Positions 40,333 to 64,000 of a stretch of 64,000 bases of DNA are shown here, in pieces. The first letter of the stretch is position 1. Each line of letters starts with the position of its first letter. The DNA comes from Calditrichia bacterium. GTDB taxonomy: Bacteria > Calditrichota > Calditrichia > JAJRVZ01. The notes under the pieces were generated by a model. The model was given only the letters and a program-made list of their open reading frames with translations. It ran no database searches and had not been told where the DNA came from. The translations under genes and the position numbers were made by a program. Location: contig CAVZSQ010000019.1 of the NCBI GenBank assembly GCA_963777955.1, positions 96,001 to 160,000 on the forward strand. Direction: 5' to 3'.

Positions 40333-40432
40333 GATTCTTTCTCCTGCAATTCCCGAGTGTGAGTTTAGTCGTGGTATTAGTAAATTCCTGCTTAATATTC
40401 CTGTTAAAAAATTATTCGGTGGTTACCAGTTA

Positions 40433-40486
40433 ATTATAGCAATACCTGGTTAAAGATATGTTAAGATTATGTTAAGATTTTGTGAA
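40433..40486 (-). promoter_or_regulatory. Pho-box-like array (4 x 11-bp repeats) plus TATAAT -10 upstream of the downstream pit
   Basis: Minus strand TTCACA-aaatc-TTAACA-taatc-TTAACA-tatct-TTAACC, then 9 nt, then TATAAT. Confidence 0.75.
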
Positions 40487-40605
40487 ATTAATGATCCATC
40501 CCCCTGATCCCTTTCCCCGGTGCCCCATACGCTTGTGCAGAGTATTACAGATGCAAGTCGAAAGAATAAAGCCAGGGGACTAATGGAGGAATGGTTCGGA
40601 TGAAT

Positions 40606-41623
40606 CTTATTTACGTAAAATAGTTCTGTTATGTAATAAATTAGCGCAGCAAAAGCGGCAGAAACAGGCAGTGTTAATACCCAGGCGGCTACAATTTTGC
40701 CGGCAATTCCCCAGCGGACTGCTGATAAACGGCGGGTAGCCCCGACACCCATAATGGCCCCGGCAATGGTGTGCGTGGTACTGACGGGAATTCCCATTAA
40801 TGCAGTACTGATCAGGACGATTGACCCCCCGGTCTCGGCGCAGAATCCGCCCATCGGTTTAAGATGAGTCAACTTCATGCCCATGGTACGGATGACATTC
40901 CATCCCCCCAGTCATGGTTCCCAGACTGATCGCGCCGTAGGCGGTTAAAATGACCCAAATGGGGATATAAAATCCCTGTGACTTGTCATACATCCACGGG
41001 GGTATATCGACCGTGCTGGTAAACATCAGGATAACCATGATACCCATTGTTTTCTGGGCGTCGTTCGTTCCATGTCCAAGACTGTACAAAGCCGATGAGA
41101 CCAACTGGCCAATCCTGAAAACATGGTCGACCTTTTTATTTGACCAATCCCTGAACAACCAATTCACCATTATCATCAACAGTAAGGCCAGCACCAGGCC
41201 GAGTGCCGGTGATAAGAAAATAAAAATGACTGTTTTATATATACCGCTCATAATCAGGGATTCACTGCCAGTTTTTATCAGAGCAGCCCCGATTAAGCCC
41301 CCGATCAGCGCATGAGATACGCTGATCGGCATACCGTACTGCGTGCATAGATGCGTCCAGATTATAGCACTGAGCAGCGCCGAAAAAATCAGGGTATTGG
41401 AAACCACTTTAGGGTCGACGATTCCTTTACCGATTGTAGTGGCCACGGCATATCCGAATAAAAAGGCCGCAATAAAATTGAACATGGCTGACCACAGCAC
41501 GGCCTTTTTAGGCGTTAATACTCTGGTCGATACGACCGTGGCAATCGCATTGGCGGCATCATTCATACCATTAAGAAAATTAAACAGCAGGGCTATAAAG
41601 AGAAGGATCAGGATGATAGTCAT
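40606..41623 (-). CDS. pit: PiT-family inorganic phosphate transporter, upstream copy (frameshift ~40900; 3' end approximate)
   Basis: Same PiT signature motifs in ORFs 40859..41623 and 40450..40884; similarity to the paralogue ends near 40610. Confidence 0.88.
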
Positions 41624-46458: not shown

Positions 46459-47830
46459 ATGATTAATCCGCATATTTTTCGTGAATACGATATTCGCGGC
46501 GTGGTAGACCGTGATTTGAACGATGAAGTGGTCTACCAATTAGCACAGGGATTCGGTACCTACCTGCGGCAGCAGCAATTAAAAAAAATCTCGCTGGGCG
46601 GTGATGTCCGCCTTTCCACGGAACGGTTTCGCGGCATACTGATCAAAGGATTCAGGCAGGTCGGCATCGATGTGATCGACATCGGTATCGTGCCGACTCC
46701 GGTGCAGTATTACAGTATGTATAATTTGCCGGTTGACGGCGGCCTGATGATCACCGGCAGCCATAATCCGGCAGAATATAATGGTTTTAAATTGACGGTT
46801 CAGAATGCTCCTGTTTACGGGGCTGAAATTCAGAAAATTAAACTGATTATCGAGGCGGGAAAATTTGCCTCCGGCCAGGGCACAGTCGAAAAGACAAATC
46901 TGATCCCGGCCTATATCGAGCATATAAAAAAAGATATAAAGATAAAAAAGAAACTAAAAGTCGTACTGGACTCGGGGAATGGTGCCGCGGCTCTGGTGGC
47001 CCACCGCTTATTCAAAGAACTGGGAGTGGAAACTGTTGACCTGTTCGACACACCTGACGGCCGTTTCCCCAATCATCACCCTGATCCGACTGTGCTGGAA
47101 TACCTGCATGACTTGATCGAATCCGTTCGAGCAGACCCACGCCGATCTGGGCATCGCTTATGACGGTGACGGCGACCGTCTGGGAGTTATCGATGAACAC
47201 AGCCAGGTGATCTGGGGCGACCGCCTGTTGATCATTTTTAGCCGCGATATTATCCGGCGTCAGCCCGGAGCAAAAGTTATCTTTGAAGTAAAATGCTCGC
47301 AGGCCTTGCCGGAAATGATTGAAAAATTTGGGGGTCAACCAATCATGTGGAAAACCGGTCATTCCCTGCTGAAGAAAAAAATGAAAGAGACCGGAGCACC
47401 CCTGGCCGGGGAGATGAGCGGACATTTATTTTTTGCCGACCGTTATTATGGTTATGATGATGCTATTTATGCGTCAGCCCGACTGGTAGAGTTGCTCTCC
47501 CATGGTTCCAATCCATTATCCGCCCTGCTCTCGGATGTTCCGCAATATTTTTCGACTCCGGAAATCAGGGTGGACACGGTCAATGATGAAGAGAAATTCA
47601 AAATAGCGCAACAGGCCAGGGATTATTTTTCAACCCGCTATGAGGTTATTGCTATAGATGGAGTACGCATTCTGTTTGGCGATGGCTGGGGACTGGTACG
47701 GGCTTCCAATACGCAGCCGGTACTGGTTTTACGGTTTGAAGCAAGGTCAGCTCAACGCCTGGAAGAGATTAAAAATATGGTCATATCCAAACTAAAAGAA
47801 TTTGGCAAAATAGAGATCAAGAAGTCATGA
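46459..47830 (+). CDS. Phosphomannomutase/phosphoglucomutase (frameshift ~47130)
   Basis: FREYDIRG, TGSHNP, YDGDGDR (shifted frame), GEMSGH, RASNTQP. Confidence 0.93.
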
Positions 47831-49679: not shown

Positions 49680-49729
49680 GGGCAGGTCGCGACCTGCCCC
49701 TACAAAGTGGCGATTCATGAATCGCCACT
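49676..49729. repeat. Two GTAG-type REP palindromes between convergent genes
   Basis: Perfect 28-bp palindrome GTAGGGGCAGGTCGCGACCTGCCCCTAC overlapping the prs stop codon, then AGTGGCGATTCATGAATCGCCACT. Confidence 0.8.
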
Positions 49730-49730
49730 G

Positions 49731-50576
49731 CTAATTCAAATCTATATACCCATTAATATGCTTACTCTTATCGATAATGTGATTATCCGCGTCAACGACA
49801 GCACCATGACAGTTATTGCAACTTGCTTCGACATCGATGTGCCCCATCGGCGGCAGTAAATGGCAACTACCGCAGACCGCCTGACCTGATCCGGCTTGTG
49901 TCCAGTCCATTTCCTGATTATTGCCCAGCATAGCATCGGTTTCATAGAAATCCGGATTGGCACTGGCTGATTTTCTAAAGATAAAATTCCCATGACAATA
50001 GGTATTACTGCAGGATGCCGTAGCATGATCCCAGCGCGGGGATATCTTGCCCTGCCAGCTGGCCATTCCGCCAAATTGTACGTTAATCCCTTCCTGTTTA
50101 TCAATATGATCAGGATCATCAAAACCGGTGAGTGTGGATGACACAGATCACAAGTTCCGGGTGTAGGCTGTGCTCCAGGTATCGCCGCTGAGGTGAATCT
50201 GATGTGCACCCACACCGATTGCCGTTGTAACCGTATCCCCCATCAAATCCTGCGGAGGAGCCCAGGAAGTGAGGGCCAAAACCGAGGCATTACTATTACC
50301 GTGACAGAGGTTGCATGCTTCCATGCCAGCCGTTTCGCTGTGACAGGCATAACAGGAAGCACCGCTGGAACCACCCCGGTAATCGCTGCCATGGCAGGTG
50401 ATACAGGATTCATAGCCGGCGGCCTTGACTTTATTGCCATGGAATTCCGCTGAACTGAGCGTATTCCAGTCCGCCGGATGAGTGACACTGGGGGGGGGTG
50501 TTATTTCTTCGGTACAGGACCAGATCAGTACCACTAAGAAAAGACTGGCAAAAATAATTAATGCTTTCACAGTCAA
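49731..50576 (-). CDS. Lipoprotein multiheme cytochrome c, 7 motifs including CxxxxCH
   Basis: IWSC lipobox; CITCH, CYACH, CNLCH, CDLCH (restored by two compensating indels at ~50140-50152), CSNTYCH, CGSCH, CNNCH. Confidence 0.85.
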
Positions 50577-50669: not shown

Positions 50670-52583
50670 TCAGTTTGTTTTTGTATAAGCCGTATATTCT
50701 TCCGGATGATGATGCCGGAGATCTTCCTCGCTGATTTTACCGTCCAGCCAGGTCAGGTTCATGGGATATTTTTCCGGATGATAAATTACAAAGAACCAGT
50801 GCCAGATAAATATAGCCAGGGTGGCCAGCCAGGCTTCGAAATAATGGATAACTTCGGATGTTTCAAACATCCAGGTCGGCAGATAGTTCATAAAAAATTC
50901 AGGAAACCATAATACCAGACCGGTGAAGGCCATCACCGCAGTACCCCAGATCAAAGCCAGATATTCTGCTTTTTCGGTATAATCCCAGCGGCCGAAGCGG
51001 GGACGGTGCTCAGAGAAACCCAGATAATATTTCATATTCTGCCAGAATCCGGTAACATCGGAAATTTGCGGACGTAAGGCCGATATTTCCTTTCTGCCCT
51101 GGCGATGAAATAAGAAATAAACCAGTTGAATCAGCGATATACTTATCAGTATAACCGCGCCGATCCGGTGCAGTACTGAGCGCAGAGACTCGGTCATTCC
51201 GGCAGAAACCAGTAAACGTACCCAACCGGCATCAGGAAATTTTAGGGCAAAACCTGTTATCACCAGAATAAAAAAACTGAAGATCAGTAAAAAATGCTGG
51301 TACACTTCAAAAGAGCGAAAACGCTGGTATAAACGGTCCTGTTTGCGGGCCTGCCGTTTTTTACGTATATAACTTACCAGGATAATCAGGTTATGCAGAA
51401 CCATGCTGCCGACAATGACAATAATCAGCCACATATAGACGGTTCGTGCATAAAAAGTTACCGGATTACGTTCGGCCAGATTCTTGGGATGTACAGCAAT
51501 ACTGCTGAATTCCTGGCTGATGTTATCATGACACTTGCTGCAGGTTTTTTTCAGATTAGCCGGATTCACACTCGACTCAACCGAGGATTGCTCGCGGATC
51601 GCATGGGTCTCATGGCAACTGGTGCAGTTGGCGGCATCGACAGATCCTTTTAATATAGCCAGACCGTGATAGGTCCGGTTATAGGAAGCGAAGCGCTCGG
51701 CATCTAATCCGAAGCGCGCCATCATTGCCGGCGAAGAATGACATTTGGCGCAGATCTGCGAGGATAAATTCAGACGGTTGGTAATCGCGTCAATTTCCTG
51801 AGGCGACTGAATTTTATGTTCCCCGTGGCAATCATTGCAGGTGGGCGATTCAAAATGACCGCGTTGTACGGCCCGCCAGTGGATACTCTGCAAATATTCC
51901 GCCTTCACCTGCTGATGACAATGACCGCAGGTTTCGCTGCGGTTTAATTTGTTAAAACTGGAGCGCGGATCGGACATTATATAAATGGCGTGAGAACCAT
52001 GACAGTTGGTACAAGTGGGTGCGCCGCGGGCTGGATCTTCGCGCAGGATCCTGGCATGCACACTCTGCTGATAACCGGCCACCGGTCCATCCCCCTGGTA
52101 ACCCAGATATTCAATTACCCGCGGATCCAGATGGCATTTACCGCAGGTAACAGCCATGTTCAGGGGATAGATTGTGGATGCAGAATCAGCAGCCGGCAGC
52201 ATATAATGACTGCCGTGGCAATCCTTGCACTGGGCCGGAGATATATTTTTTCCCCCTGCCGAAGTAGCATGGATACTCCCGGCATATACTTGTTGTACAT
52301 CCTCATGACAACTGCTGCAGTTGACCGGGGGTAATTCCGATTCATGTTCGGGACTCTTGACAGTACTGTGGCAATCCACACAATTGAATCCGCCATGAAT
52401 CGATTTTTCGTATTTGCCCTGATCTACATATAAGGAGATTTCGGTACTATCATCGATACTTTTAGACAGACCCGAGTCGGCATGACATTGTAAACAATCT
52501 TCAACTGATTGGCCGTAGACAAATGCCGTTGAGAATAATCCGCAAATAAATATGAACCGCTTGATTTTTAACCTCCTAATCAT
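50670..52583 (-). CDS. cbcL: CbcL-like protein: periplasmic 11-heme cytochrome c fused to an FdnI/HydC-type cytochrome b
   Basis: 11 CxxCH motifs, then TM domain with QH..LVITGF, LHRIGA, EKAEYLALIWG..TGLVLWFP, IHYFEAWLA..IWH. Symbol denotes homology, not proven orthology. Confidence 0.85.
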   Translation of the reverse strand: MIRRLKIKRFIFICGLFSTAFVYGQSVEDCLQCHADSGLSKSIDDSTEISLYVDQGKYEKSIHGGFNCVDCHSTVKSPEHESELPPVNCSSCHEDVQQVYAGSIHATSAGGKNISPAQCKDCHGSHYMLPAADSASTIYPLNMAVTCGKCHLDPRVIEYLGYQGDGPVAGYQQSVHARILREDPARGAPTCTNCHGSHAIYIMSDPRSSFNKLNRSETCGHCHQQVKAEYLQSIHWRAVQRGHFESPTCNDCHGEHKIQSPQEIDAITNRLNLSSQICAKCHSSPAMMARFGLDAERFASYNRTYHGLAILKGSVDAANCTSCHETHAIREQSSVESSVNPANLKKTCSKCHDNISQEFSSIAVHPKNLAERNPVTFYARTVYMWLIIVIVGSMVLHNLIILVSYIRKKRQARKQDRLYQRFRSFEVYQHFLLIFSFFILVITGFALKFPDAGWVRLLVSAGMTESLRSVLHRIGAVILISISLIQLVYFLFHRQGRKEISALRPQISDVTGFWQNMKYYLGFSEHRPRFGRWDYTEKAEYLALIWGTAVMAFTGLVLWFPEFFMNYLPTWMFETSEVIHYFEAWLATLAIFIWHWFFVIYHPEKYPMNLTWLDGKISEEDLRHHHPEEYTAYTKTN

Positions 52584-53478
52584 CAACACTGTGCTGGTGG
52601 CATTCAATACAGACATTGCGGGCATAGGCATCGTTATGACAACTCAGACAATAATCCAGATCCCCTTCAGCCTGACGTTTGTGCAATCCGCCATTCCGGG
52701 GATTGGTCCAATTGGCATAGGCATGATTGCGCGGCATGACCATTTCACGCTGATGACACTCAATACAGAATGCGCCTTCCTGATGACAGGTAAGGCAATT
52801 ATCCTTATTGGTCCGGACATCGATTCCATGATTATTTTTATAATTCAGCGGATGAGTCAAGCGGTCCAGATTATCCCCTTCATGACAATCGGTACAGTAG
52901 GAATTCTGATGACAGTGTACACAAGCTTCTTTATTCAGCTGTGCGGTCGGTCCATGATCCTTATTCCAGCCGGTACGGTGATCCGCAGGTTTAAACGGAT
53001 GGTCCTGTTCATGGCAGACCAGGCACTTTGCCTTATCTTCATTATAATCCATACTGCCATGACATTCGCGGCATTTATTTTCGGCAGGAATTTGTCCGAC
53101 GCCGGCCGGGGATTCCCGCAATTCAATCCCGGCATGACAGACCTTACAATCCTGATCCGATTTAACATGTAGCTGGTGAGCAAATTTCGCCCGCAACTGG
53201 ACTATCCGCGGTACCTCTTGTGCCGCGTCCGGATCAGTATGACACACCTTGCATTCGGTATCTTTTTCATCGTGGCAATTGTAGCAGGTCTGCATCGCAG
53301 GCAGCAGATTGTCCTGGGGTGATTGACTGGCGGATACCGGCTGATGACAATCGGCACATTTGGCGCCGGCTTGCTGCAGGTGGAATTTATGCGAAAAGAT
53401 CAGATCTGCTTGCTGGGAAAAACCCGATAAGATCCAGCAGGCCAAACAAACTATAACGAGAATTAGCAGTCTTTTCAT
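52576..53478 (-). CDS. Periplasmic 12-heme cytochrome c (c3/c7-like)
   Basis: Signal peptide MKRLLILV..GFS|Q; FSHKFH; 12 CxxCH motifs in ~300 aa. Confidence 0.92.
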   Translation of the reverse strand: MKRLLILVIVCLACWILSGFSQQADLIFSHKFHLQQAGAKCADCHQPVSASQSPQDNLLPAMQTCYNCHDEKDTECKVCHTDPDAAQEVPRIVQLRAKFAHQLHVKSDQDCKVCHAGIELRESPAGVGQIPAENKCRECHGSMDYNEDKAKCLVCHEQDHPFKPADHRTGWNKDHGPTAQLNKEACVHCHQNSYCTDCHEGDNLDRLTHPLNYKNNHGIDVRTNKDNCLTCHQEGAFCIECHQREMVMPRNHAYANWTNPRNGGLHKRQAEGDLDYCLSCHNDAYARNVCIECHQHSVDD

Positions 53479-53497
53479 AGTGGTACACCTTCTCATT

Positions 53498-54688
53498 TTA
53501 CCAGATAAAATGAATATGATTTAAAAGACGATTATCGGAGTCCGCAAAGCGGTTATTCAACCACTGGTACTCCAGATCTGCCTTCCAGTGTTTGGTGAAG
53601 TTGTAATGCAACCGGACCGTGTTGGCTAACTGGTTTTCATATTCATAGATTTCTTCAAAACGGTAGCGGGTATAGTTCACACCAACCGAAGCAATCAGGT
53701 TCTTCCAGATTTCATAGCCATAATCGAACATCACCCCGACCTGATCGCCAAGGTCTCCGGTCTCATAAAGCAGATTGATCGCGCCGCGATTGTCATTAAC
53801 TCCCAGCATCAAACGCTGTCCCGAGGCCTCTTCCAGAGAGATATACTGGACTCCGGCCGATAAACCATAGTCGGCGGTCAAAGCATAATTCGTATTCAGA
53901 CCGGCCTGGGTATATGGTTCGATCTCAAAGATTTTGAAATAAGAATCGGCATAAATTTGTGGAGTCTGTTGTTTGGCAAAAACACTGACAGCCAGCTTAT
54001 TGGAGGGGGCGTACCTGGCCGAGGCATACAGACGATGCAGGGTCGAGTTCAAAATATCATAATGTGTCTGCAGGATGAATTGGATCTTTTTAAGTGAATA
54101 ATTATTCAGATTCAAACCCACAATCTGCCATTGGTTCTCATTTTCCCTTAACCTCTGCAGGTAAGCCAGCTGCACATTAGTGTTGTAAAAATGACGATAG
54201 GTCAACGCTGAACCATAAACCGTGGCAGCATCGAATTCGTATACTTTCATTTCACGGAACAGATTGGATTCCACGCCGCCGAAGATCTGCCAGCTGAGAT
54301 CGGCCACTGGTTTCAGGGTCAGGTTTACACCATCCAGGCTACCAAAGGGAATTCCGGCATGCAGGAACTGTCGGCCGATTTCGAAATCCAGCAAATTATC
54401 AAAAAGATTACTGGCTGAGACCGACATCCGGTAAGCCCGCCAGGGCAGCTGACCCGGTTGCGGCTGGCTCAGCCAGCGCATGGAAACATTCAGGTTCAGA
54501 TTGTTCCAATTTTCGGCCAGGGCAGAGAAACGCAGGAATTGATAAACATTGAGAGCCGACTTTGATCCTTCCTGTTCATAGACGTACAGGGAGGAAGTAT
54601 AGCGGCCGCTCGTTTCAATGGTTTGCGCTGTAATACTATGAATACAGAGCAACGTGGCGATGAGTGAAATCAGATAATTTTTCTTCAT
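53498..54688 (-). CDS. Outer-membrane beta-barrel of a putative porin-cytochrome conduit
   Basis: Signal peptide ITA|Q, IGRQF..LDG motif, amphipathic strands, C-terminal Trp; first gene of the cytochrome operon. Confidence 0.8.
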   Translation of the reverse strand: MKKNYLISLIATLLCIHSITAQTIETSGRYTSSLYVYEQEGSKSALNVYQFLRFSALAENWNNLNLNVSMRWLSQPQPGQLPWRAYRMSVSASNLFDNLLDFEIGRQFLHAGIPFGSLDGVNLTLKPVADLSWQIFGGVESNLFREMKVYEFDAATVYGSALTYRHFYNTNVQLAYLQRLRENENQWQIVGLNLNNYSLKKIQFILQTHYDILNSTLHRLYASARYAPSNKLAVSVFAKQQTPQIYADSYFKIFEIEPYTQAGLNTNYALTADYGLSAGVQYISLEEASGQRLMLGVNDNRGAINLLYETGDLGDQVGVMFDYGYEIWKNLIASVGVNYTRYRFEEIYEYENQLANTVRLHYNFTKHWKADLEYQWLNNRFADSDNRLLNHIHFIW

Positions 54689-54744
54689 AGGCAAAACCTA
54701 TTGTTAATTAAAGTTATTGAGGCATTTAAAACTCTCTATAAAAC

Positions 54745-54760
54745 GTCAAATATCATGCCA
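54745..54760 (-). promoter_or_regulatory. sigma54 promoter (GA variant at -12) of the porin-cytochrome operon
   Basis: TGGCATGATATTTGAC = GG-N10-GA, ~55 bp upstream of the porin start. Confidence 0.6.
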
Positions 54761-54913
54761 AATTATAGTTTTTAATCGGTTTATTATAATCACGACTTTT
54801 AGCCGGAATTCGGTAATAAACCGGGCCAATTGAACTAAATTTATTAAAACTTAACAAATTATCGAATATTTATTTGTTTTAACTGGAATCACTTTTACAT
54901 GTTAGAAAAAATA

Positions 54914-54952
54914 TGAGACATGAAAGCGACACTGTGAGAATTTCAGGTCTCA
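54914..54952. promoter_or_regulatory. Putative enhancer (bEBP upstream activating sequence)
   Basis: TGAGACATGAAAGCGACA matches 57441-57458 at 15/18 nt; TGAGAC..GTCTCA inverted pair. Confidence 0.5.
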
Positions 54953-55031
54953 AAATAAAACAGCCGAGATAGATAGGGAAATAAAATCGTTCGTATTGAT
55001 GTGATATTAAATCAGAATTTGAGTATTAAAT

Positions 55032-55079
55032 AAAAAAAAGACCTTCCGGAATAATTCTCCCCCAGCTCCGGAAGGTCTT
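55032..55079 (-). terminator. Rho-independent terminator after the 9-heme lipoprotein gene
   Basis: AAGACCTTCCGGA...TCCGGAAGGTCTT stem followed on the minus strand by a T-run. Confidence 0.85.
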
Positions 55080-55111
55080 CGATCAGAGTATAATATATTT
55101 ATACTCTTTTC

Positions 55112-56824
55112 TTACCAGTTACTGGCTACAGCTTTCCGATCCGAAGTCAGAATGGCAGCACCGGGAACTTTATTATCCATCAAATGCAAATAACTCTGCT
55201 GTAATAATTGTACAGCATAATCGGGATTATGAACACCATGACTGCCGTCCTCCTCGACGAATATTAAATTCCATCCTGCTTCCCGCTGGATGTAGGTGGA
55301 ATTGTTCGTATCGCCCAGAGCCTCAGCCAAGGATATACCGCCGGTAGTGTCCAGGCCGGTAGTGATCAAGGCATCTTCCAGCATAGTCATCAAGCCGGCA
55401 ACTTCGTCCTGAACCCCTTCTACCTGGTTATCGCCATCAAAATCTTCCAGGGCCATAATATCTTTAAACGATGATATAGTACCATGGCAATTGGAGCATG
55501 CTAACACAGTGGGTTCAAAGGTATGACCGGTCTTGGCCGGTTCCGTTTCGCTCACATATTCAACCCGGTTTAAATGGCAGGTTTTGCAACTATTCTGGAC
55601 ATACAGATGGGAAGGTTGTGCCCAGACAAAATCTTCCGCGGCAACAGCCTGGTAGCCGGTTTTGGCAGCCATCATATCCCCCTGCACGCTGCCATGAGGT
55701 CCAAAGTTAGACCGGCCAATGGCAATTTGCGATTCGCCTCCGCGACGGGCATGGTGACATTGCATACAAAGTTTGCCGACACCACCGTCAGTGATCAATG
55801 GAGATTCGCCATTAGCAGTCACCAGCTGAACATCAGCAATGGTCCGTAGCTGCGCCGGATTAGTTGCGTCGTGGGAATCATGACAGGTAGTGCAGCCCAT
55901 CGATTGAAAAGGCGCCACGGTAGTATCCGGTCTGGCGCTTACCGCCCCGCTGCCATAGAATGTACTCAGATCTCCGGATAAACGAACACCCGCGGCAACC
56001 CCTTCATGACAACCCTGGCAAGATACCGCATCGGCTTCGGCCATAGAACTATGAGCAGATTCCTCCCATTCCGAATAATAAGGATGGTGGGTGCCTTCAT
56101 GACATTTCGCACAATTCTCAGCCGACCAGTCAACAGTGTTACCGCCGCCGGTAAGGTGACCTGAAGCGGCACCGTGGCAGTTTTCGCACTGGACGTTTTC
56201 GAACTTGGCAATCGGTGCTTCGTCATAGCCGCTGTTACCCAAAGGTCCCTCATACCCCACGGCATGGCAGGGATTGCAGTAGGAAGCCGGATGACCGCTG
56301 CCCTGCAGAGTTGCCCAGGCACCGGCATGACCGGTTTCAGACCAATCGTTATATTCACTGGAATGGCAACCCGAACAGGCTGAGGAACCCACGTAATAAG
56401 GCGTCTGGTATGGTGCATACATCCCGACACCCATAGTACGCAGACCCAGACCTATAAGTTGTCCCCCGACCACATGTACACTCACTTCATAAGCCCCGGC
56501 GTCATCCGGTGCTTTCCAGACAACTGTATCCCCAGTGGCACTGTTAAAAGTACCGCCGGTGGCGAACCAGTTATAAACCAGCGTTCCAACCTGATATCCG
56601 GTTGGAATCGTGATGTCTGCGGTAAATGTTACTTTACCCCCCTGGGCTACAGAATCATTGCCGCTGACATTAATGATCTCGACTGCGATCGTATCGTGGA
56701 CGACTTTCTCGACTTCCACGATCTTCTCTTTTTCCGATTCGCAGGATGCCAGCAACATCAATCCCAGCAAGGCTACCGGAACGATCAGCGCCAGTAATTT
56801 GTGCATAATAGAGTTTTTATGCAT
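55112..56824 (-). CDS. Lipoprotein multiheme cytochrome c, 9 hemes, with N-terminal Ig-like domain (OmcB-like C-terminus)
   Basis: LASC lipobox; CSGCH, CNPCH, CENCH, CAKCH, CQGCH, CTTCH, CMQCH, CKTCH, CSNCH; DGSHGVHNPDY tail. Confidence 0.9.
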   Translation of the reverse strand: MHKNSIMHKLLALIVPVALLGLMLLASCESEKEKIVEVEKVVHDTIAVEIINVSGNDSVAQGGKVTFTADITIPTGYQVGTLVYNWFATGGTFNSATGDTVVWKAPDDAGAYEVSVHVVGGQLIGLGLRTMGVGMYAPYQTPYYVGSSACSGCHSSEYNDWSETGHAGAWATLQGSGHPASYCNPCHAVGYEGPLGNSGYDEAPIAKFENVQCENCHGAASGHLTGGGNTVDWSAENCAKCHEGTHHPYYSEWEESAHSSMAEADAVSCQGCHEGVAAGVRLSGDLSTFYGSGAVSARPDTTVAPFQSMGCTTCHDSHDATNPAQLRTIADVQLVTANGESPLITDGGVGKLCMQCHHARRGGESQIAIGRSNFGPHGSVQGDMMAAKTGYQAVAAEDFVWAQPSHLYVQNSCKTCHLNRVEYVSETEPAKTGHTFEPTVLACSNCHGTISSFKDIMALEDFDGDNQVEGVQDEVAGLMTMLEDALITTGLDTTGGISLAEALGDTNNSTYIQREAGWNLIFVEEDGSHGVHNPDYAVQLLQQSYLHLMDNKVPGAAILTSDRKAVASNW

Positions 56825-56866
56825 TCATTCACCCCCATTGTTAAAAGATTAGTCATTTGTTCCTGT

Positions 56867-57251
56867 TTAATAAATTCTTTTTGCAATCAATTCAATTACT
56901 GAGTTTAGCGAATCGGTCAGCTCCGATTCTGCTATAGGTTTAATAGCATAATATTGAATTCCCAGCTGACTGATCTCTTTACCCAGACTCTATGCCGGTA
57001 TCCGACGTGGCGAAAAAAATATCCACATGCTGGTTAATCTTACGGACCGAACGCAGAATATGTGCTGAATAAGGGCTCAGAAAATCGTCATCAACAATGA
57101 TCAGAGAAGGATTCTGGGCACAGATGGTCGACATGACATCCAGTGGATCTGCAGATCCATCGTAAATCATCAGAGCATTTTTTTGCCTGGGAATTGCGTT
57201 CCCGACCATCTGATTAAGATTTTGATCCCTGGATATTAACATTATTTTCAT
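56867..57251 (-). CDS. Stand-alone atypical receiver-domain protein (frameshifts ~56950-56990)
   Basis: MKIMLISRD, PSLIIVDDD; shifted frame YAIKPIAESELTDSL. Confidence 0.7.
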
Positions 57252-57264
57252 TGCAGGCATCCTG

Positions 57265-57280
57265 TGCAATTGATATGCCA
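57265..57280 (-). promoter_or_regulatory. sigma54 promoter of the receiver + 9-heme cytochrome transcript
   Basis: TGGCATATCAATTGCA, canonical GG-N10-GC. Confidence 0.8.
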
Positions 57281-57371
57281 AATACTCTGAAAAATACCCT
57301 TATAAATTAAAAATTATGTGTAATATTATATAAATATGTATAATATTTACTAATATTGTATATGATATAAT

Positions 57372-57458
57372 AGGGACAATGGAGCACACTGGCCATTAAT
57401 GTCCCTGATCAGTTCTTAAAGTGAGCGTACCTTGTCGCAGTGGGACATGAATGTGACA
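57372..57458. promoter_or_regulatory. Putative enhancer sites (bEBP UAS)
   Basis: AGGGACA..TGTCCCT inverted pair; TGTCGCA..TGTGACA; TGGGACATGAATGTGACA matching 54914. Confidence 0.5.
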
Positions 57459-57503
57459 AATCCCTTATTTAATCTTACCAGCTTTTTGCTTATATTTGTC
57501 ATT

Positions 57504-58979
57504 ATGTTCAGGACCATCAACAGTAAATTTATTTTCTTCACTATCATCTTTATCATGCTAAGTGTTGGTCTGCCCACTACTTTTTTGATCCGCCAGTTCA
57601 GGGCTAATTTTGAACAACGTACCAGCGCCTTGCTGGAAACCACCATGGAAGTGGTTCATGGCGACGTAGTCAACGTAATGTTGAAATATGATCACAAAAG
57701 GGTTCAGGACATTATCGATAAAATAATGCGCTATAAAATCATCCGGCATCTGCGTTTTTTCGATACGGTGGGCAATATACGATTTGCTACCGATACCACC
57801 GAGATCGGTAGAAACATCGATGATGTAGATAAGGGACACGTCCAGATCGGCGAAATAGATCACAAGGTTATCCTGTTACTGGAAAATAAAAAAGTATACA
57901 CCTCCACCCGTGCTATTGTAAATCTGCCGGAGTGTCAATCCTGTCACGGGATTAATCCGGTCATAGGTTATCTGGATATCGATGTTAATCTGACCCGGGC
58001 CGAGAGATATTTTTATACCGGCTCATTTCATATCATCTTTCTGGCTATCGCTATAGTGCTGTTGTTATTTTTCGGATTTTATTACCTGTTCAACCGCTTC
58101 ATCAGAAAACCGCTGGACCGTTTAACCCTGGCGCTTAACCAGGTGGATGAGGGACAGCTGGATACCCGCCTGCCGGCAAAAAAAGCAGATGAAATCGGCA
58201 TTCTGGAACGACAGTTCAACACCATGGTTTCCAACCTGCAGGCTTCCCAGCAGAAGATCGAAGAACTGCACTTCGAACAACTGCAGCGGGCGGATAAACT
58301 GGTAACCCTGGGTGAATTGGCCGCCGAAATGGCTCATGAGATCAACAACCCTGCCGGTATTGTCATGTCCCGCGCTGATTATCTGCACATCAAGGCTGAT
58401 GAGAATTTGGCCTTAAAAAAATACCAGGATGACCTGCAGGTGATCATCAATCAGGTCAATAAAATATCGCGGATTACCGGTAATATTTTAAAGTACAGCA
58501 AAAAATTACCCAAGCAATTTCATACTGTGGATTTAAAGCAGGTTCTTGAAGAAAGTCTCAATGTACTGGAACCGCGCCTGGCTATGAAAAAAATTGATCT
58601 GCACAAAGAATTCAAAGATAATGATTGTCAGATTTCAGGCGATGCCCAGCAACTGGAACAGGTTTTTACCAATTTGATCAACAATGCCGTTGACGCGATG
58701 TCCCAGGGCGGATTTTTAACCTTAAGCCTGGAGCGCAATGAACAGCATCAAATTCAAATTAAAATCAGCGACAGCGGTAGCGGTATCAGTGCGGATCTGC
58801 TGGACCAGATCTTTACTCCATTCTATACCACCAAGCCCCCCGATAAAGGTACGGGTCTGGGACTGTATATTGTCAAAAATATCTGCAAAAACCATAATGC
58901 CGATATTCATTGTACCAGTTCACCCGGCCTGGGGACTACTTTTACGGTAACTTTCAGAGGGAATGATTTGAAAAAATGA
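57504..58979 (+). CDS. Sensor histidine kinase with periplasmic CxxCH motif and HAMP domain
   Basis: CQSCH between two TM helices; AHEINNP H-box, NLINNA, FTPFYTTK, GTGLGL. Confidence 0.93.
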   Translation: MFRTINSKFIFFTIIFIMLSVGLPTTFLIRQFRANFEQRTSALLETTMEVVHGDVVNVMLKYDHKRVQDIIDKIMRYKIIRHLRFFDTVGNIRFATDTTEIGRNIDDVDKGHVQIGEIDHKVILLLENKKVYTSTRAIVNLPECQSCHGINPVIGYLDIDVNLTRAERYFYTGSFHIIFLAIAIVLLLFFGFYYLFNRFIRKPLDRLTLALNQVDEGQLDTRLPAKKADEIGILERQFNTMVSNLQASQQKIEELHFEQLQRADKLVTLGELAAEMAHEINNPAGIVMSRADYLHIKADENLALKKYQDDLQVIINQVNKISRITGNILKYSKKLPKQFHTVDLKQVLEESLNVLEPRLAMKKIDLHKEFKDNDCQISGDAQQLEQVFTNLINNAVDAMSQGGFLTLSLERNEQHQIQIKISDSGSGISADLLDQIFTPFYTTKPPDKGTGLGLYIVKNICKNHNADIHCTSSPGLGTTFTVTFRGNDLKK

Positions 58980-60346
58980 AAAAGATCTTGATCGTTGACG
59001 ACGAAGAAGATATGCTGCAAAGTTTACGCAAAATTTTATTGCAGCGGCAGTCCTACCAGGTAACGACCATAAAGGACAGCAGGCAGGCTTTACAACTGGC
59101 CGGTCATGAAAAATTTGATCTGATTATAACCGATTTCAAAATGGGCGATATTTCCGGAATCGATATATTAAAAGCGGCCTCCGGTAAATTTCCCGATGCC
59201 AAGGTGATCATGATCTCCGGGTACGGCACAATCGAAGCCAGCGTGCAGGCGATGCAGGAAGGCGCCTTCGATTTTATCGAAAAACCATTTACCTCTAAAA
59301 AATTATTCGCCTGCATTGACCGCGTATTCGGACCGCAGCTTGAAGCAAAAACCTTCGGCAGTGATGCCGGGGGGAAGGTGGTCGAACTGCCGGGTATTAT
59401 CTTTAAAAGCAAACAGATGTCCGAGATAATAACTCTGGTCGGCAAAATTTCTTCCGGAGATTTAAATATACTGCTTACCGGTGAAAGCGGCACCGGCAAG
59501 GAATTAATAGCACGGGCAATCCATAATCTGAGCAAGCGCAGTATCCATCCCTTCGTGCCGGTGAACTGCGGTGCCCTGCCGGAGAATCTGTTTGAAAGTG
59601 AATTATTCGGCCACGAGAAAGGGGCTTTTACCGGTGCCATCAAGACCAAACCGGGATTGCTGGAATTTGCCAACCAGGGTACTTTTTTCTTTGACGAGAT
59701 CGGCGATCTCAGTTTGACCCTGCAGGTAAAACTATTACGCATGCTGGAACAACGCCAGATCCGGCGGGTCGGCGGCCAGAAAGAAATTGATATTGATGTA
59801 AGGATTATTGCCGCCACCAATAAGCAACTGGCCGAAGCCGTCAAAGAAAACAAATTTCGTGAAGATCTGTATTATCGTCTGAATACCATGCAGATCGAGA
59901 TTCCACCCTTGCGCGAACGGACTGATGATATTCTGCCGCTGGCCAATAATTTTCTCGCCGAGTTATGCCGCAAGAATGAAAAAATCGTTACCCGCTACTC
60001 CTCCGAAGCGGAAGAATCCCTCAAATTATATAACTGGCCGGGAAATGTCCGGGAGTTGCAGAATATGATAAGCCGGGCTTATTTTCTCACCTCCTCCCGG
60101 GTAATTCAAAAAGCAGATTTACCGCTGCCGGTCAGCGAGAAAACTTTTTATATCGATCAGCAGATGTTTGATCTATCCTATAAGCAGGCCAAAGATGCGG
60201 TCCTGGAAAAATTTGAAATCGAATATCTGACCGGCCAGTTGCGTAAATATAAAGGTAATATTTCCATAACTGCTGCCAAATGCGGAATTGACCGGCGTTC
60301 GATTCATCGCTTAATTAAAAAATACAACATTATGTATAAAGACTAG
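58976..60346 (+). CDS. sigma54-dependent (NtrC-family) response regulator
   Basis: Receiver domain, GESGTGKE, GAFTGA, WPGNVREL, Fis-type HTH. Confidence 0.95.
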   Translation: MKKILIVDDEEDMLQSLRKILLQRQSYQVTTIKDSRQALQLAGHEKFDLIITDFKMGDISGIDILKAASGKFPDAKVIMISGYGTIEASVQAMQEGAFDFIEKPFTSKKLFACIDRVFGPQLEAKTFGSDAGGKVVELPGIIFKSKQMSEIITLVGKISSGDLNILLTGESGTGKELIARAIHNLSKRSIHPFVPVNCGALPENLFESELFGHEKGAFTGAIKTKPGLLEFANQGTFFFDEIGDLSLTLQVKLLRMLEQRQIRRVGGQKEIDIDVRIIAATNKQLAEAVKENKFREDLYYRLNTMQIEIPPLRERTDDILPLANNFLAELCRKNEKIVTRYSSEAEESLKLYNWPGNVRELQNMISRAYFLTSSRVIQKADLPLPVSEKTFYIDQQMFDLSYKQAKDAVLEKFEIEYLTGQLRKYKGNISITAAKCGIDRRSIHRLIKKYNIMYKD

Positions 60347-60356
60347 GGGGTGGATT

Positions 60357-61865
60357 ATGAAACTTAAGATTCCTGCTTCCATGCGAAATTGGATTTCATT
60401 AATCGGCACTATGATTGCGCTGATCTGCTTTTTTATGATCGTTTTCCTCTTCTTTATCACCATGATCCTGGGTCAGGGCGGCTCTTATATCGGCCTGGTA
60501 ATTTATGTGCTGTTACCGGCGGTGATGATTATGGGATTATTGTTAGTCCCCATAGGTATGTATTTCCAGCTGCACCGTCGAAAAAAATCGGGACAAATTC
60601 AGGAGCTGACCTGGCCGCGGCTAGATTTAAATGACTTGAAACAACGCCGCTTCTTCTTCAACTTTGCCATTGTAACTACTATTTTTCTGTTTATCTCGGC
60701 TGTAGGCAGTTATGAAGCTTTTCATTTTACCGAGTCGGTCCCCTTCTGCGGTACCATTTGTCATGAAGTCATGAAACCCGAATATACGGCGTACCAGCAT
60801 TCGGCCCATGCCCGCGTGGCTTGCGTCGACTGCCATGTAGGTGAAGGAGCAAACTGGTACATGCGGTCGAAATTATCCGGATTGTACCAGATTTACGCCG
60901 TGACCACCAACATCTTCCCCCGGCCCATTCCGACTCCGGTTAAAAACCTGCGCCCGGCCCGCGAAACCTGCGAACGCTGCCACTGGCCGCAGAAGTTTTA
61001 TGCCCAGAAATTCAGGGCCGAACGGCATTACCTGAATGACGAGCAGAATACCGAATGGGATTATCAGCTGATTATGAAAATCGGTGCAGAATATTCAGCC
61101 CTCGGACTGGTCGAAGGTATTCACTGGCATATCAATCCCGATGTGAAGATCGAATACCTGGCCAATAATGAAAAAAATCTGGAGATACCGTGGGTACGCT
61201 ATACCGATCAAAAAAATAACCGGGTGATCACTTATCTTAACGAAGAAAATCCCATCGATCCCGACACGGTCAAAAACCAAAACATACGCACCATGGATTG
61301 CATGGATTGTCATAACCGGCCATCGCACAGTTACAAACCGCCTGCATTTTTCGTCAATGAGGCGCTGACTTCCGGTTTAATTCCCAAAGAATTACCCCAG
61401 ATCAAATCACTGAGTATGCAGATCTGTGCCATTGAGTTCAATCAGACCGATTCCGCCCGGCAGTACATTCAAAAATCTGTCAGCGAGTTCTACCAGAGTA
61501 ATTATCCGCAAATTTATCAGGAGAAAATGCAGCTGGTTGAGAAAGCCTGGACTGGCTTACAGGAAGCGTATCTGCAAAACATCTTTCCGGAAATGAAAGT
61601 GCGCTGGAATGCTTATCCCAACCATATCGGACATGTAGAATTTCAGGGATGTTTCCGCTGCCATGATGATAAACATAAAAGCTCTGACGGGTATACAATC
61701 GCCAAGGACTGCAATCAGTGTCATCATATCATTGCCCAGGGTAGTCCCGGCCAGATGTCTATTTCAACTCTGGATAAACCCCTGGAGTTTAAGCATCCGG
61801 TTGATGTGGGCGATGCCTGGCGGGAAGGATACTGTACCGATTGTCATACAGGCTTAAATCCCTGA
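60357..61865 (+). CDS. imcH: ImcH-like NapC/NirT-family inner-membrane 7-heme cytochrome c
   Basis: Three N-terminal TM helices; CGTICH, CVDCH, CERCH, CMDCH, CFRCH, CNQCH, CTDCH; NLRPARETCE and GIHWH motifs. Symbol denotes homology. Confidence 0.85.
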   Translation: MKLKIPASMRNWISLIGTMIALICFFMIVFLFFITMILGQGGSYIGLVIYVLLPAVMIMGLLLVPIGMYFQLHRRKKSGQIQELTWPRLDLNDLKQRRFFFNFAIVTTIFLFISAVGSYEAFHFTESVPFCGTICHEVMKPEYTAYQHSAHARVACVDCHVGEGANWYMRSKLSGLYQIYAVTTNIFPRPIPTPVKNLRPARETCERCHWPQKFYAQKFRAERHYLNDEQNTEWDYQLIMKIGAEYSALGLVEGIHWHINPDVKIEYLANNEKNLEIPWVRYTDQKNNRVITYLNEENPIDPDTVKNQNIRTMDCMDCHNRPSHSYKPPAFFVNEALTSGLIPKELPQIKSLSMQICAIEFNQTDSARQYIQKSVSEFYQSNYPQIYQEKMQLVEKAWTGLQEAYLQNIFPEMKVRWNAYPNHIGHVEFQGCFRCHDDKHKSSDGYTIAKDCNQCHHIIAQGSPGQMSISTLDKPLEFKHPVDVGDAWREGYCTDCHTGLNP

Positions 61866-61975: not shown

Positions 61976-62500
61976 TCATCGCAAATTAATTTGGTCTGAA
62001 CAGACGGTACAAAAACTATCCCCTTTCACATCCAGATCGTCGACCGTATTGGAACTGGCCATGACGCATTTATAATTATGACAATGGCGCAGATTCTGTA
62101 AATGGCCATATTCATGAATGGTTTCTTTGACTAAGCGCCCGATCAGTTTATGTTCATCGGCCGGCAATCCGTAAAATTCATTGATCAACCGGCAACTGGA
62201 TACGATTGCCGCGCTGCCCCCCAGACCGGCCAGACCGAAGACAAAGGTCAAAACGGGGATATATAAATCCAGGCTGGTATAGATTATGACTTTATTTTGC
62301 TGTGTGGAAGGTCTGCTGACCTTTTTAATAATTTTTATCGCATCGTATTGTTCCCGGTTCTGATCGTAACAATCCTGAACCGTTAGTTCCGTATCGTAGC
62401 GGGCAGCTATTAAACCGCTGCGCTCACACAGCAGGGAGATCAGATTATCGAGCAGATTATTATGATTGAATTGGACGGTAATAATTTCGAGTTCAGGCAT
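61976..62500 (-). CDS. Archaemetzincin (peptidase M54) zinc metalloprotease
   Basis: DLYIPVLTFVFG, HEYGHLQNLRHC, CVM Met-turn, FCTVC. Confidence 0.9.
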   Translation of the reverse strand: MPELEIITVQFNHNNLLDNLISLLCERSGLIAARYDTELTVQDCYDQNREQYDAIKIIKKVSRPSTQQNKVIIYTSLDLYIPVLTFVFGLAGLGGSAAIVSSCRLINEFYGLPADEHKLIGRLVKETIHEYGHLQNLRHCHNYKCVMASSNTVDDLDVKGDSFCTVCSDQINLR

Positions 62501-63851
62501 TTTCCGGGCGTTTTATTCCGTACTTCTGCAATTTTTTATAGATGGTAACCCGATCTATGTCCAGTACTCGGGCAGCATTAGAAATATTCCAGTTATTTTT
62601 TTCCAGTACACTGATAATATGCGCTTTTTCAACATCGTCCAGTGACAGGGTGGTTTTAAACGAAGTCTGCAATTCAACATGGTTAAGCAGGAAATCTGCG
62701 CCGTTCAGAACATCGTCCTGTGTTACCACCATAGCCCTTTCGATGGCGTTTTCCAGTTCCCGCACATTCCCTTTCCAGGGATATTTCATCAGCATTTGCA
62801 AAGCAGCAGGGGCAATGCCTTCCACCGCTTTGTTCATTTTGGCGCGGTAATGGGCGATAAAATGCTCAACTAATTCAGGAATGTCTTCCGGCCGCTCACG
62901 TAAAGGTTTAATGTTGATCGTATACACCTGTAAGCGGTAATACAGATCTTCGCGGAATTTTCCATCCTTCACGAATTCTTCCAGATTGGTATTGGTAGCC
63001 GAAATCACCCTGAAATCCGATTGAATGATTTCATTGCCGCCCAGACGGGTGAATTCCCTGGTTTCGATTGCCCGCAGCAAATCCACCTGCGTTTTGGGTC
63101 CGATAGTACCGATCTCATCCAGGAATAAAGTTCCGCCGTTGGCAATTTCTAGTTTCCCTTTGCGCCGGTACATAGCCCCGGTAAAGGCTCCTTTTTCATG
63201 TCCGAATAATTCACTCTCCAGCAGGGTTTCGGTCATCGCCCCGCAATTAACCGTAACGATGGGAAAGAAACGTCGATCGCTCTGGGCATGAATGGCCTGG
63301 GCTACCAGTTCTTTGCCGGTGCCGCTTTCGCCGCGGATCATCACCGTTGTCGAAGTCTTAGCCACGGTTTCGATCAGTTTCTTGACCTCGGCAATATAAC
63401 GGCTTTTGCCGATTATCTCCGGCGGCCGGGTCAACTCTTCCAGACTTCCTTTCAAACCGATGTTCTCAATGGTCAGGCGCCGCTGTTTTTCCGCATTACG
63501 GACCAGATGACTTAAACTATCGGGATCGAACGGCTTGGTGATATAATCAAAAGCCCCTTCTTTTAAAGCCTGTACGGCAGTATCTACCGCTGCGTAGGCC
63601 GTGATCATGATTACCACGGCATCTTTGTCAATTTCTCTGATGCGCCGGTGCAATTCCATGCCATCCATTCCCGGCATTTTAATATCGATAAAATAAATAT
63701 CCCAGCGGGTCGTACTCATTTTGTTCAGGGCTTCTACCGCATCCCGCGCTGTATCGACCTGATAACCATCTTCCGTAAACCAGCCGGACAATGACTCGCG
63801 GACGATTTCTTCATCATCCACTATCAGTATTTTTACATCATTCTTAGCCAT
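62493..63851 (-). CDS. sigma54-dependent (NtrC/AtoC-family) response regulator
   Basis: Receiver DIKMPGMDG, GESGTGKE, GAFTGA, WKGNVREL, Fis HTH. Confidence 0.95.
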   Translation of the reverse strand: MAKNDVKILIVDDEEIVRESLSGWFTEDGYQVDTARDAVEALNKMSTTRWDIYFIDIKMPGMDGMELHRRIREIDKDAVVIMITAYAAVDTAVQALKEGAFDYITKPFDPDSLSHLVRNAEKQRRLTIENIGLKGSLEELTRPPEIIGKSRYIAEVKKLIETVAKTSTTVMIRGESGTGKELVAQAIHAQSDRRFFPIVTVNCGAMTETLLESELFGHEKGAFTGAMYRRKGKLEIANGGTLFLDEIGTIGPKTQVDLLRAIETREFTRLGGNEIIQSDFRVISATNTNLEEFVKDGKFREDLYYRLQVYTINIKPLRERPEDIPELVEHFIAHYRAKMNKAVEGIAPAALQMLMKYPWKGNVRELENAIERAMVVTQDDVLNGADFLLNHVELQTSFKTTLSLDDVEKAHIISVLEKNNWNISNAARVLDIDRVTIYKKLQKYGIKRPENA

Positions 63852-63853
63852 AC

Positions 63854-64000
63854 TCAGGACGCCTTTAATTGTTTAACCGGAATTTTGATGATAAAGGTAG
63901 AACCTTGATTAACTGCTGATTCGACCCAGATTTCTCCGCGGTGCCGTTGCACGATGGCATATACCGCCGAAAGTCCCAGACCCACCCCCTTAACTGCATT
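63854..64000 (-). CDS. Sensor histidine kinase, C-terminal fragment (continues beyond window)
   Basis: KGVGLGLSAVYAIVQRHRGEIWVESAVNQGSTFIIKIP HATPase_c tail. Confidence 0.9.
   Translation of the reverse strand, partial: NAVKGVGLGLSAVYAIVQRHRGEIWVESAVNQGSTFIIKIPVKQLKAS

Follow-up and report, generated by a model that had tools for sequence, protein, structure and literature searches.

The 64,000-nucleotide stretch of a sediment-dwelling Calditrichia bacterium analyzed here (GenBank assembly GCA_963777955.1, contig CAVZSQ010000019.1, positions 96,001 to 160,000; hereafter, the window) carries two divergent gene blocks that we read, with somewhat better than even confidence, as a Geobacter-type porin-cytochrome island. 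A heme sensor kinase and a sigma54-dependent activator would induce a 9-heme lipoprotein and an outer membrane conduit on demand; an 11-heme sister of the quinol oxidoreductase CbcL, carried in the conduit operon, would be the conduit's own quinol-oxidizing entry, and ImcH would have basal expression together with the sensor. Electrons would pass from menaquinol to ImcH or the CbcL sister and on through a 12-heme cytochrome and the porin to surface lipoproteins, while the sensor heme (predicted His/His ligation) would report the reduction state of the periplasm, so that a backlog of electrons leads to construction of the conduit. The direction of flow, the signal, and the potentials are all predictions. 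The new element is a conserved, predicted TGTCNCA enhancer before both sigma54 promoters of the window.

It is still largely an open question how bacteria perceive extracellular redox conditions and commit to making an electron conduit, and the locus offers a candidate sensor, activator, operator sequence, and two-promoter regulon. By their genes, Calditrichia, which are not known as metal reducers, carry a full path from membrane to surface. A literature search, with figures, bioRxiv supplements, and most subscription papers outside its view, found no account of this locus, the TGTCNCA enhancer, or a five-helix CbcL subfamily; Figures 5 and 7 of PMC6295460 may depict related clusters, and the accessible portions of PMC5317091, PMC9769843, and PMC7399161 do not describe the locus. 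Quinol oxidoreductases within porin clusters (mtrH, mtoC, Dester_0351) and the presence of ImcH and CbcL in one genome, Calditrichota included, are already published, according to the accessible part of PMC6295460.

From the open reading frames (ORFs) and motif counts of the window, the minus-strand block consists, in order, of a small receiver, a 9-heme lipoprotein, a terminator-like hairpin, a porin, a 12-heme cytochrome, an 11-heme c/b fusion (the CbcL sister), and a CxxxxCH lipoprotein; the plus-strand block comprises a sensor kinase, a sigma54 response regulator, and, after 10 bp, imcH. A preliminary description of the sequence had placed a CbcL-like gene within a sigma54-driven porin operon and an ImcH-like gene with three transmembrane (TM) helices and seven hemes behind a sensor/regulator pair, and both placements were confirmed in their main points: the former (50670-52631, minus strand) has 11 CxxCH motifs and a cytochrome b561-type domain, and its operon has, at the motif level, a -24/-12 element at 54760 (-) and a 398-aa ORF predicted to form a 22-strand barrel of the OmbB/OmbC family. 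As for its claim that the two genes belong to one locus and different transcripts, they do lie on opposite strands, and separate transcripts for imcH and the porin operon are plausible from strand, spacing, motifs, and terminator. The hairpin, intrinsic terminator-like and followed by a U tract (55030..55080, minus strand; -23.8 kcal/mol, z -3.54, none of 200 shuffles equally stable), separates the lipoprotein and porin operons. A general sigma70/terminator scan was near chance (35 versus 28.4 and 21 versus 14.6) and was left unused.

The sensor, the activator, and the TGTCNCA enhancer

Two sigma54-type promoters precede the minus-strand operons. That of the porin operon, TGGCA-N6-TTGA (54746..54760, minus strand), is identical in a relative of the same genus (G001; the window genome, 92% complete, is G000, and the other G labels denote the genomes compared), and the canonical one of the receiver-lipoprotein operon, TGGCA-N6-TTGC (57266..57280, minus strand), is present in all six relatives examined. 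Outside long ORFs (the mask being approximate and not strand-aware), TGGCAY-N5-TTG occurs 40 times in G000 versus about 12 in shuffles. The -12 base after TTG is A in 20, T in 16, and C in 2 of the G000 motifs, and T in 15, C in 13, and A in 5 at the relatives' loci. Since TTGA is a common form in G000, that of the porin promoter is credible, and the preference for TTGA/TTGT may reflect an altered RpoN specificity in Calditrichia. The gene rpoN is present in G000, with a sigma54 motif upstream of rpoN itself (C19:294530).

A predicted enhancer 160-170 bp ahead of the porin promoter (54914..54931) has one exact and one degenerate TGTCNCA half-site at an 11-bp period; in G001 it is an exact double site. 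The second predicted enhancer (57433..57458) has three half-sites 159-178 bp upstream of the lipoprotein promoter, just upstream of the predicted kinase promoter. Across 26 promoter regions there are 26 half-sites, often at an 11-bp period, against a mean of 2.3 and a maximum of 7 in 500 shuffles. These figures overstate significance, since the search for the motif started from the window and related genomes are not independent samples. By promoter class, TGTCNCA precedes 7/7 receiver-lipoprotein, 5/7 porin, 0/4 imcH, and 1/8 other promoters. In eight additional loci, outside the set from which the motif was defined, it recurs before the receiver/lipoprotein promoters of G005, G029, G037, G039, and G048, with two spaced half-sites in G036, and before none of three imcH promoters, which makes 0/7 imcH sigma54 promoters of relatives in all. 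Genome-wide in G000, the double motif is found in three places: before both window sigma54 promoters and at one site inside a coding region. The positional constancy of this predicted enhancer is strong.

The activator (58976..60346, plus strand) is by its domain matches a sigma54-dependent response regulator of receiver-AAA-helix-turn-helix type, with a conserved recognition helix, DRR(S/T)I(H/Q)R, and a C terminus matched in 47 of 61 genomes. The occurrence of TGTCNCA tracks this helix: of the stretches that contain the activator, 13 of 16 have paired sites, against 4 of 20 among those that lack it (13/15 and 4/21 before the G007 activator was assigned by hand), and those four adjoin the same kind of heme kinase. 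From this we infer that the activator binds the repeated TGTCNCA sites and activates both sigma54 promoters. Among the relatives compared, the 9-heme lipoprotein is, at the motif level, the regulator's best-conserved target; by these motifs, conservation concerns the lipoprotein/conduit target and not a choice between ImcH and CbcL. Because the enhancer marks the porin/CbcL-like operon but not imcH, differential control of the two in the window genome is plausible. Activators of about 343 aa without receiver domain or kinase occur in L091, L096, and L108 (G026, G028, and G044), where the enhancer region is kept, which suggests constitutive or differently signaled versions.

The sensor histidine kinase (57504..58979, plus strand; alternative start at 57432) has a periplasmic single-heme domain whose CxxCH motif and a His 32 residues before it are invariant in 10/10 aligned orthologs. 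The domain resembles PF21563 (E 0.0014, below the cut-off); its top matches in an atlas search reach 0.93-0.94, and PF21563 is assigned to 15-37% of their members. As described in the accessible part of PMC12889525, the sCache_heme sensors GSU0582 and GSU0935 appear to share its plan, in which a Cache-like domain in the periplasm carries CxxCH between two helices and precedes HAMP; the window sensor differs in its kinase output and the conserved extra His. A candidate sigma70 -10 box, TATATT (57491..57496, plus strand), ends 7 nt short of the predicted kinase start codon (ATG 57504), and the same hexamer was seen by eye 7-9 nt before the ATG in G002, G006, G007, and G009; an extended -10 at 57363-57371 was dropped, as relatives do not conserve it there. 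Between the end of the enhancer at 57433-57458 and the predicted -35 of the kinase operon are about 10 bp. With the enhancer so close to that promoter, autorepression of the kinase operon including imcH, a behavior known from other enhancer-binding proteins, is possible.

The arrangement recalls the BccR-cbcBA system (10.1101/2021.04.15.440034), with its divergent sigma54 activator, sigma54 promoter, early small stand-alone receiver, neighboring heme-c kinase, and bc-type oxidase under inducible control (predicted in the window). The window target, however, is a conduit plus a CbcL sister and not CbcBA. We rejected the activator as a BccR ortholog (BccR is its top match by 1 bit only, the recognition helix differs, and TGTCNCA is absent upstream of cbcBA), and also the window receiver as an ortholog of GSU0596, to which it gave no match. 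A CbcB-like gene lies on another contig of G000 (C27:14680-18660, minus strand), where a 7-heme cytochrome accompanies a CbcB-like cytochrome b (30% identity to the protein of the comparison genome G098) and two further genes, presumably YeeE/YedE-like; this cluster may give the genome three types of quinol oxidase.

The conduit and its two quinol oxidases

The porin (53498..54694, minus strand, 398 aa) is predicted to be a 22-strand unplugged outer membrane beta-barrel of the OmbB/OmbC (Pcc) family. Its AlphaFold2 model has 22 strands with pLDDT 97.2 when built from an alignment of 138 relatives plus the query set (a single-sequence fold gave pLDDT 35), and a profile built from 22 homologs found 1282 relatives. 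The same profile matched two identical 403-aa porins of G098 (E 4.3e-75; pairwise identity 22%), with one 8-heme and one 12-heme gene behind each of them. We take these porins to be OmbB and OmbC, in line with the heme counts given in the accessible part of PMC4245776. The top fold matches of the model (Foldseek/VIA) were 22-strand barrels, generic ones only, with MtrB (6r2q_B) in 14th place (Z 16.8, root mean square deviation 4.4, 326 aligned) and no solved OmbB-type chain among the matches.

The periplasmic partner (52576..53496, minus strand) is an OmaB/OmaC-like cytochrome with 12 CxxCH motifs that matches the 8-heme proteins beside the G098 porins (phmmer E 3.7e-16). By CxxCH count and domain match, the gene at 55112..56824 (-) encodes a 9-heme lipoprotein with a c552-type C terminus; the absence of CxxCK ruled it out as NrfA. 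Its likeness to a 744-aa 12-heme OmcB-type protein is weak (pairwise E 7e-07). Two multiheme proteins of the locus, which carry a lipobox-like Cys and resemble OmcB weakly, are candidate surface lipoproteins. Compared with the Pcc cluster OmbB-OmaB-OmcB as far as PMC4245776 was accessible, the island has a porin and a periplasmic cytochrome homologous to those of that cluster, with multiheme lipoproteins as neighbors in both; it differs in the 12 hemes of the periplasmic partner, in having a small CxxxxCH and a 9-heme lipoprotein but no clear OmcB, and in containing an inner membrane oxidoreductase. In several relatives, the porin operon is headed by a double-rhodanese gene and a 9-heme cytochrome (L071:13956-16431; L080, L082, L083, L090), with another repeated motif upstream (TGAAACA/TGTTTCA, by eye), often near a receiver-less sigma54 activator. 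Elsewhere in G000 (C18:50304-58712, plus strand), cytochromes of 20 and 25 hemes lie beside a membrane protein and a second, distant match to the porin profile (E 8.4e-13); this is another candidate conduit.

The CbcL sister (50670..52583, minus strand) fuses a cytochrome c of 11 CxxCH motifs to a five-helix cytochrome b561-type membrane domain (PF01292, with an FdnI match). Its translation could start at ATG 52631, ATG 52583, or ATC 52565; the overlap with the 12-heme gene noted in the preliminary description is real from either ATG (56 and 8 nt, respectively) and vanishes from the ATC. Within 52563-52577 (minus strand), an AGGAGG overlaps the 12-heme stop codon and is followed 6 nt later by the in-frame ATC, identically in G001, which lacks ATG 52583, so a non-canonical ATC start with translational coupling is possible. 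The architecture, an N-terminal multiheme c domain plus an FdnI-like cytochrome b with all five membrane His kept (positions 308, 354, 397, 515, and 530), is that of the CbcL/MtrH/MtoC family as portrayed in the accessible part of PMC6295460, and the location within a porin cluster is shared with MtrH and MtoC, which have 9 hemes and six helices.

No Pfam or NCBIfam model naming ImcH, CbcL, or porin was among the matches to window proteins. In G098, proteins of 507 and 619 aa match GSU3259 (ImcH) and GSU0274 (CbcL), respectively. The window protein has 32% global identity to the 619-aa protein and differs from GSU0274 in having 11 hemes instead of 9 and five helices instead of six: the 29 residues after its last motif hold no hydrophobic window, whereas the 19-heme paralogs of relatives retain the helix. 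Two gating residues are also changed, V205 to E (the less certain column) and F525 to A; alteration of these residues is reported to abolish the shut-off of CbcL (10.1101/2022.08.31.506072, accessible part). Residue 525 is A in 39/39 rows of the subfamily of the window protein (clade B) and F in 16/16 full-length 18/19-heme rows of clade A.

In Calditrichia, clade A has 18/19 hemes, six helices, and 43-51% identity to GSU0274 in the membrane part, and clade B has 11 to 18 hemes, five helices, and 23-36%. Two trees were made, a quick one of 72 rows and a careful one of 25 of them, with MtrH and MtoC sequences left out. Geobacter CbcL grouped with the 19-heme clade (support 100/99), and forcing it together with clade B was rejected, modestly (p-AU 0.043; 25 of the 72 rows, long branches). 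By these data, the window protein belongs to the CbcL/MtrH/MtoC family in the broad sense and to a sister subfamily, and it is not a CbcL ortholog. Because of the missing sixth helix, the changed gating residues, and the grouping of Geobacter CbcL with the 19-heme paralog, the "low-potential" role cannot be transferred to it. The 19-heme paralog was not found in G000 or at the G001 locus, and both subfamilies stand in tandem in G002, G004, G006, and G007; the sole Calditrichota member listed in the accessible part of a published survey is a 920-aa 19-heme protein of C. abyssi (PMC6295460). Genome calls of "cbcL" thus mix two subfamilies, of which one keeps the residue tied to low-potential gating, and ImcH/CbcL ratios are therefore unusable as redox markers unless the subfamilies are sorted.

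The family name fared better for ImcH (60357..61865, plus strand, 502 aa), which by alignment and tree is a true member. It is 43% identical end to end to the 507-aa G098 protein, equated with GSU3259 by the motif positions in a supplement row of PMC6295460. The three TM helices (16-34, 44-62, and 99-117 by hydropathy) are as in that protein, and the hemes, one CX3CH followed by six CX2CH, stand at 131, 156, 205, 315, 432, 452, and 493 versus 132, 157, 206, 312, 429, 449, and 487. Of the heme-1/quinol-site residues given in the accessible part of 10.1101/2023.05.03.539133, E127, H137, K173, and Q179 are kept, as in 135-136 of 136 homologs, and Y188 is F, a variant found in 22/136. In a FastTree of 138 rows, whose outgroup was only two NrfH-like sequences on a long branch, it groups with ImcH and apart from NrfH/NapC. 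Besides Y188F, the difference from GSU3259 is one of context, the gene lying behind a sensor/regulator pair beside a conduit. Full-length orthologs of at least 51% identity occur in 46/61 genomes. Some deltaproteobacterial genomes (L203, L204, L202, L181) hold an ImcH inside the Calditrichia-type clade (49-55% identity), and two of them also have a Geobacter-type ImcH elsewhere; transfer or binning could both explain this.

Layout among relatives and competing explanations

Layouts were counted over 61 genomes, many of them too fragmented to judge linkage. imcH and a cbcL-family gene lie within 25 kb in 18 genomes: divergent in six (G000, G002, G004, G006, G007, and G049) and adjacent on one strand in 12 (gaps of -20 to 633 bp), half of these in the order sensor and/or regulator, cbcL-like, imcH, with one sigma54 motif ahead of imcH-cbcL in G023. 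imcH heads the porin operon in three genomes (G005, G029, and G037), and the two genes are unlinked in two single-contig genomes (G013 and G036). In eight genomes, imcH comes directly behind the regulator; in G004 and G007 it has a sigma54 motif of its own, and in G000 and G001, 10-12 bp behind the regulator, it has no promoter motif. Of 80 imcH loci in a wider sample, only 10 lay within 10 kb of a cbcL-like gene (8/42 among those with long flanks), so the linkage is mostly a trait of Calditrichia and Ignavibacteria, by these counts. The divergent layout is one of several and is not conserved. Because relatives shuffle the genes so freely, the locus is more likely an island for regulated electron export than a fixed switch between high and low voltage; the best reading is that the position of the quinol oxidase is a movable detail in Calditrichia, the oxidases being interchangeable and not a conserved high/low-potential selector.

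This bears on the redox-potential switch of the preliminary description, in which ImcH would be expressed with the sensor and the CbcL/porin route induced on demand. In G. sulfurreducens, ImcH is required for acceptors above about -0.1 V, and CbcL functions solely below about that value. Its separate control survives as plausible for the window genome, where the enhancer stands on the porin operon and not on imcH. The analogy to Geobacter does not: according to the accessible parts of 10.1101/2022.08.31.506072, 10.1101/2021.04.15.440034, and PMC4251993, imcH and cbcL of G. sulfurreducens are both constitutive, CbcL is gated post-translationally, and the sigma54-induced oxidase is CbcBA, under BccR; the CbcL sister also lacks the gating features. 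Nor is the switch a conserved design, with the two genes side by side on one strand in a fifth of the genomes and imcH at the head of porin operons, the kind of case that the preliminary description had itself named as contrary.

A stricter form of switch, within this genus, seems unlikely, although it is rated above the other alternatives. The phosphorylated activator would turn on the conduit and the CbcL sister at low potential and turn down kinase, regulator, and imcH, transcription replacing the protein-level gate. The enhancer next to the predicted kinase-operon promoter, the short promoterless gap between regulator and imcH in G000 and G001, the lack of the enhancer at all seven imcH sigma54 promoters, the missing gating residues, and the parallel to bccR/cbcBA would fit. 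Yet a clade-B gene shares an operon with imcH in seven relatives, besides the three with imcH heading the porin operon; nothing ties clade B to low potential, the activator helix is unlike that of BccR, whose cbcBA target lacks the motif, and autorepression is an assumption taken from other enhancer-binding proteins. We are equally doubtful of the full genetic toggle, in which a single enhancer would both induce the complete conduit, its ungated five-helix CbcL sister included, and shut the divergent ImcH promoter, doing by transcription what Geobacter does by a protein gate. If true, this would be the first case in Calditrichota of extracellular electron transfer with a named sensor, operator, and regulon.

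We consider it improbable that the sensor detects nitric oxide (NO) or another gas, the island then being a nitrogen-oxide/anoxia response of a nitrite-ammonifying bacterium. The sensor does resemble the GSU0582/GSU0935-type domain, signaling-fused sCache_heme members are reported as NO binders (PMC12889525, accessible part), and G000 has two pairs of NrfH and CxxCK cytochrome; but the invariant upstream His could fill the sixth position, unlike in a five-coordinate or labile NO sensor, and the regulated genes are those of a conduit, with a lipoprotein lacking CxxCK. Slightly less probable still is a conduit that serves sulfur species or runs inward, with the CbcL sister as an MtoC-like quinone reductase or with S0/polysulfide as acceptor, and with ImcH and conduit separately controlled since they act in different reactions. 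CbcL/MtrH/MtoC proteins occur in Fe(III) reducers and Fe(II) oxidizers alike (PMC6295460) and Pcc clusters in S0 reducers (PMC4245776), as far as these sources were accessible, and the porin operon of G007 begins with genes for a double rhodanese and a 9-heme cytochrome, with same-sized genes in G013, G015, G025, and G031. However, the rhodanese module is absent from the window locus and has no close homolog in G000, the accessible part of the 2014 survey has no pcc cluster from Fe(II) oxidizers (PMC4245776), and the protein encoded at the head of three porin operons, ImcH, is known solely as an oxidase (PMC6295460, accessible part).

Several points weigh against the electron-export island that we prefer. 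The sole signaling-type sCache_heme protein that has been tested is a binder of NO and not a sensor of potential (PMC12889525, accessible part); the link between activator and TGTCNCA is inferred from co-occurrence only, in counts inflated as stated above; and the 9-heme lipoprotein resembles OmcB only weakly. The motif is missing at the porin promoters of G002 and G007 and at the imcH-porin operons of G005, G029, and G037, so control of the conduit by the activator is not universal. Finally, although a Pcc-like porin of C. abyssi had been noted, Caldithrix is not known to reduce Fe(III), according to the accessible part of PMC6137239.

Interrupted and neighboring genes

The last gene of the porin operon (49731..50576, minus strand) encodes a CxxxxCH/CxxCH multiheme lipoprotein (TIGR01904/PF09698). 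It is split in the window by two nearby single-base indels, probably an assembly error, since near-identical contigs differ by single bases at 50134/5 and 50157 and the 280-aa ortholog of G001 is intact. The small stand-alone receiver (56868..57252, minus strand; PF00072 E 1.1e-6; orthologs of 127 aa) is likewise broken by one extra base, with one base fewer at 56987 in a near-identical contig, and an assembly error is likely here too; this indel comparison rests on near-identical contigs of low depth. A phosphomannomutase gene and two tandem phosphate-transporter genes (46459-47830 and 39299-41623) are also split by frameshifts, consistent with assembly indel errors.

Beyond imcH (window 61976-64000; G000 C19:159854-165275, minus strand), a second heme-c sensor kinase and sigma54 regulator lie behind a sigma54 motif at C19:165331; this block is adjacent also in G001, G002, and G004. 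With them are genes that we take to encode an archaemetzincin and, upstream, an NrfD-like membrane protein, a 4Fe-4S protein, and two glycine-cleavage-H-like proteins. After the porin operon (49680-49730, minus strand) stand two perfect adjacent palindromes (-39 kcal/mol, z -7.3), the second of which starts with GTAG, as REP elements do.

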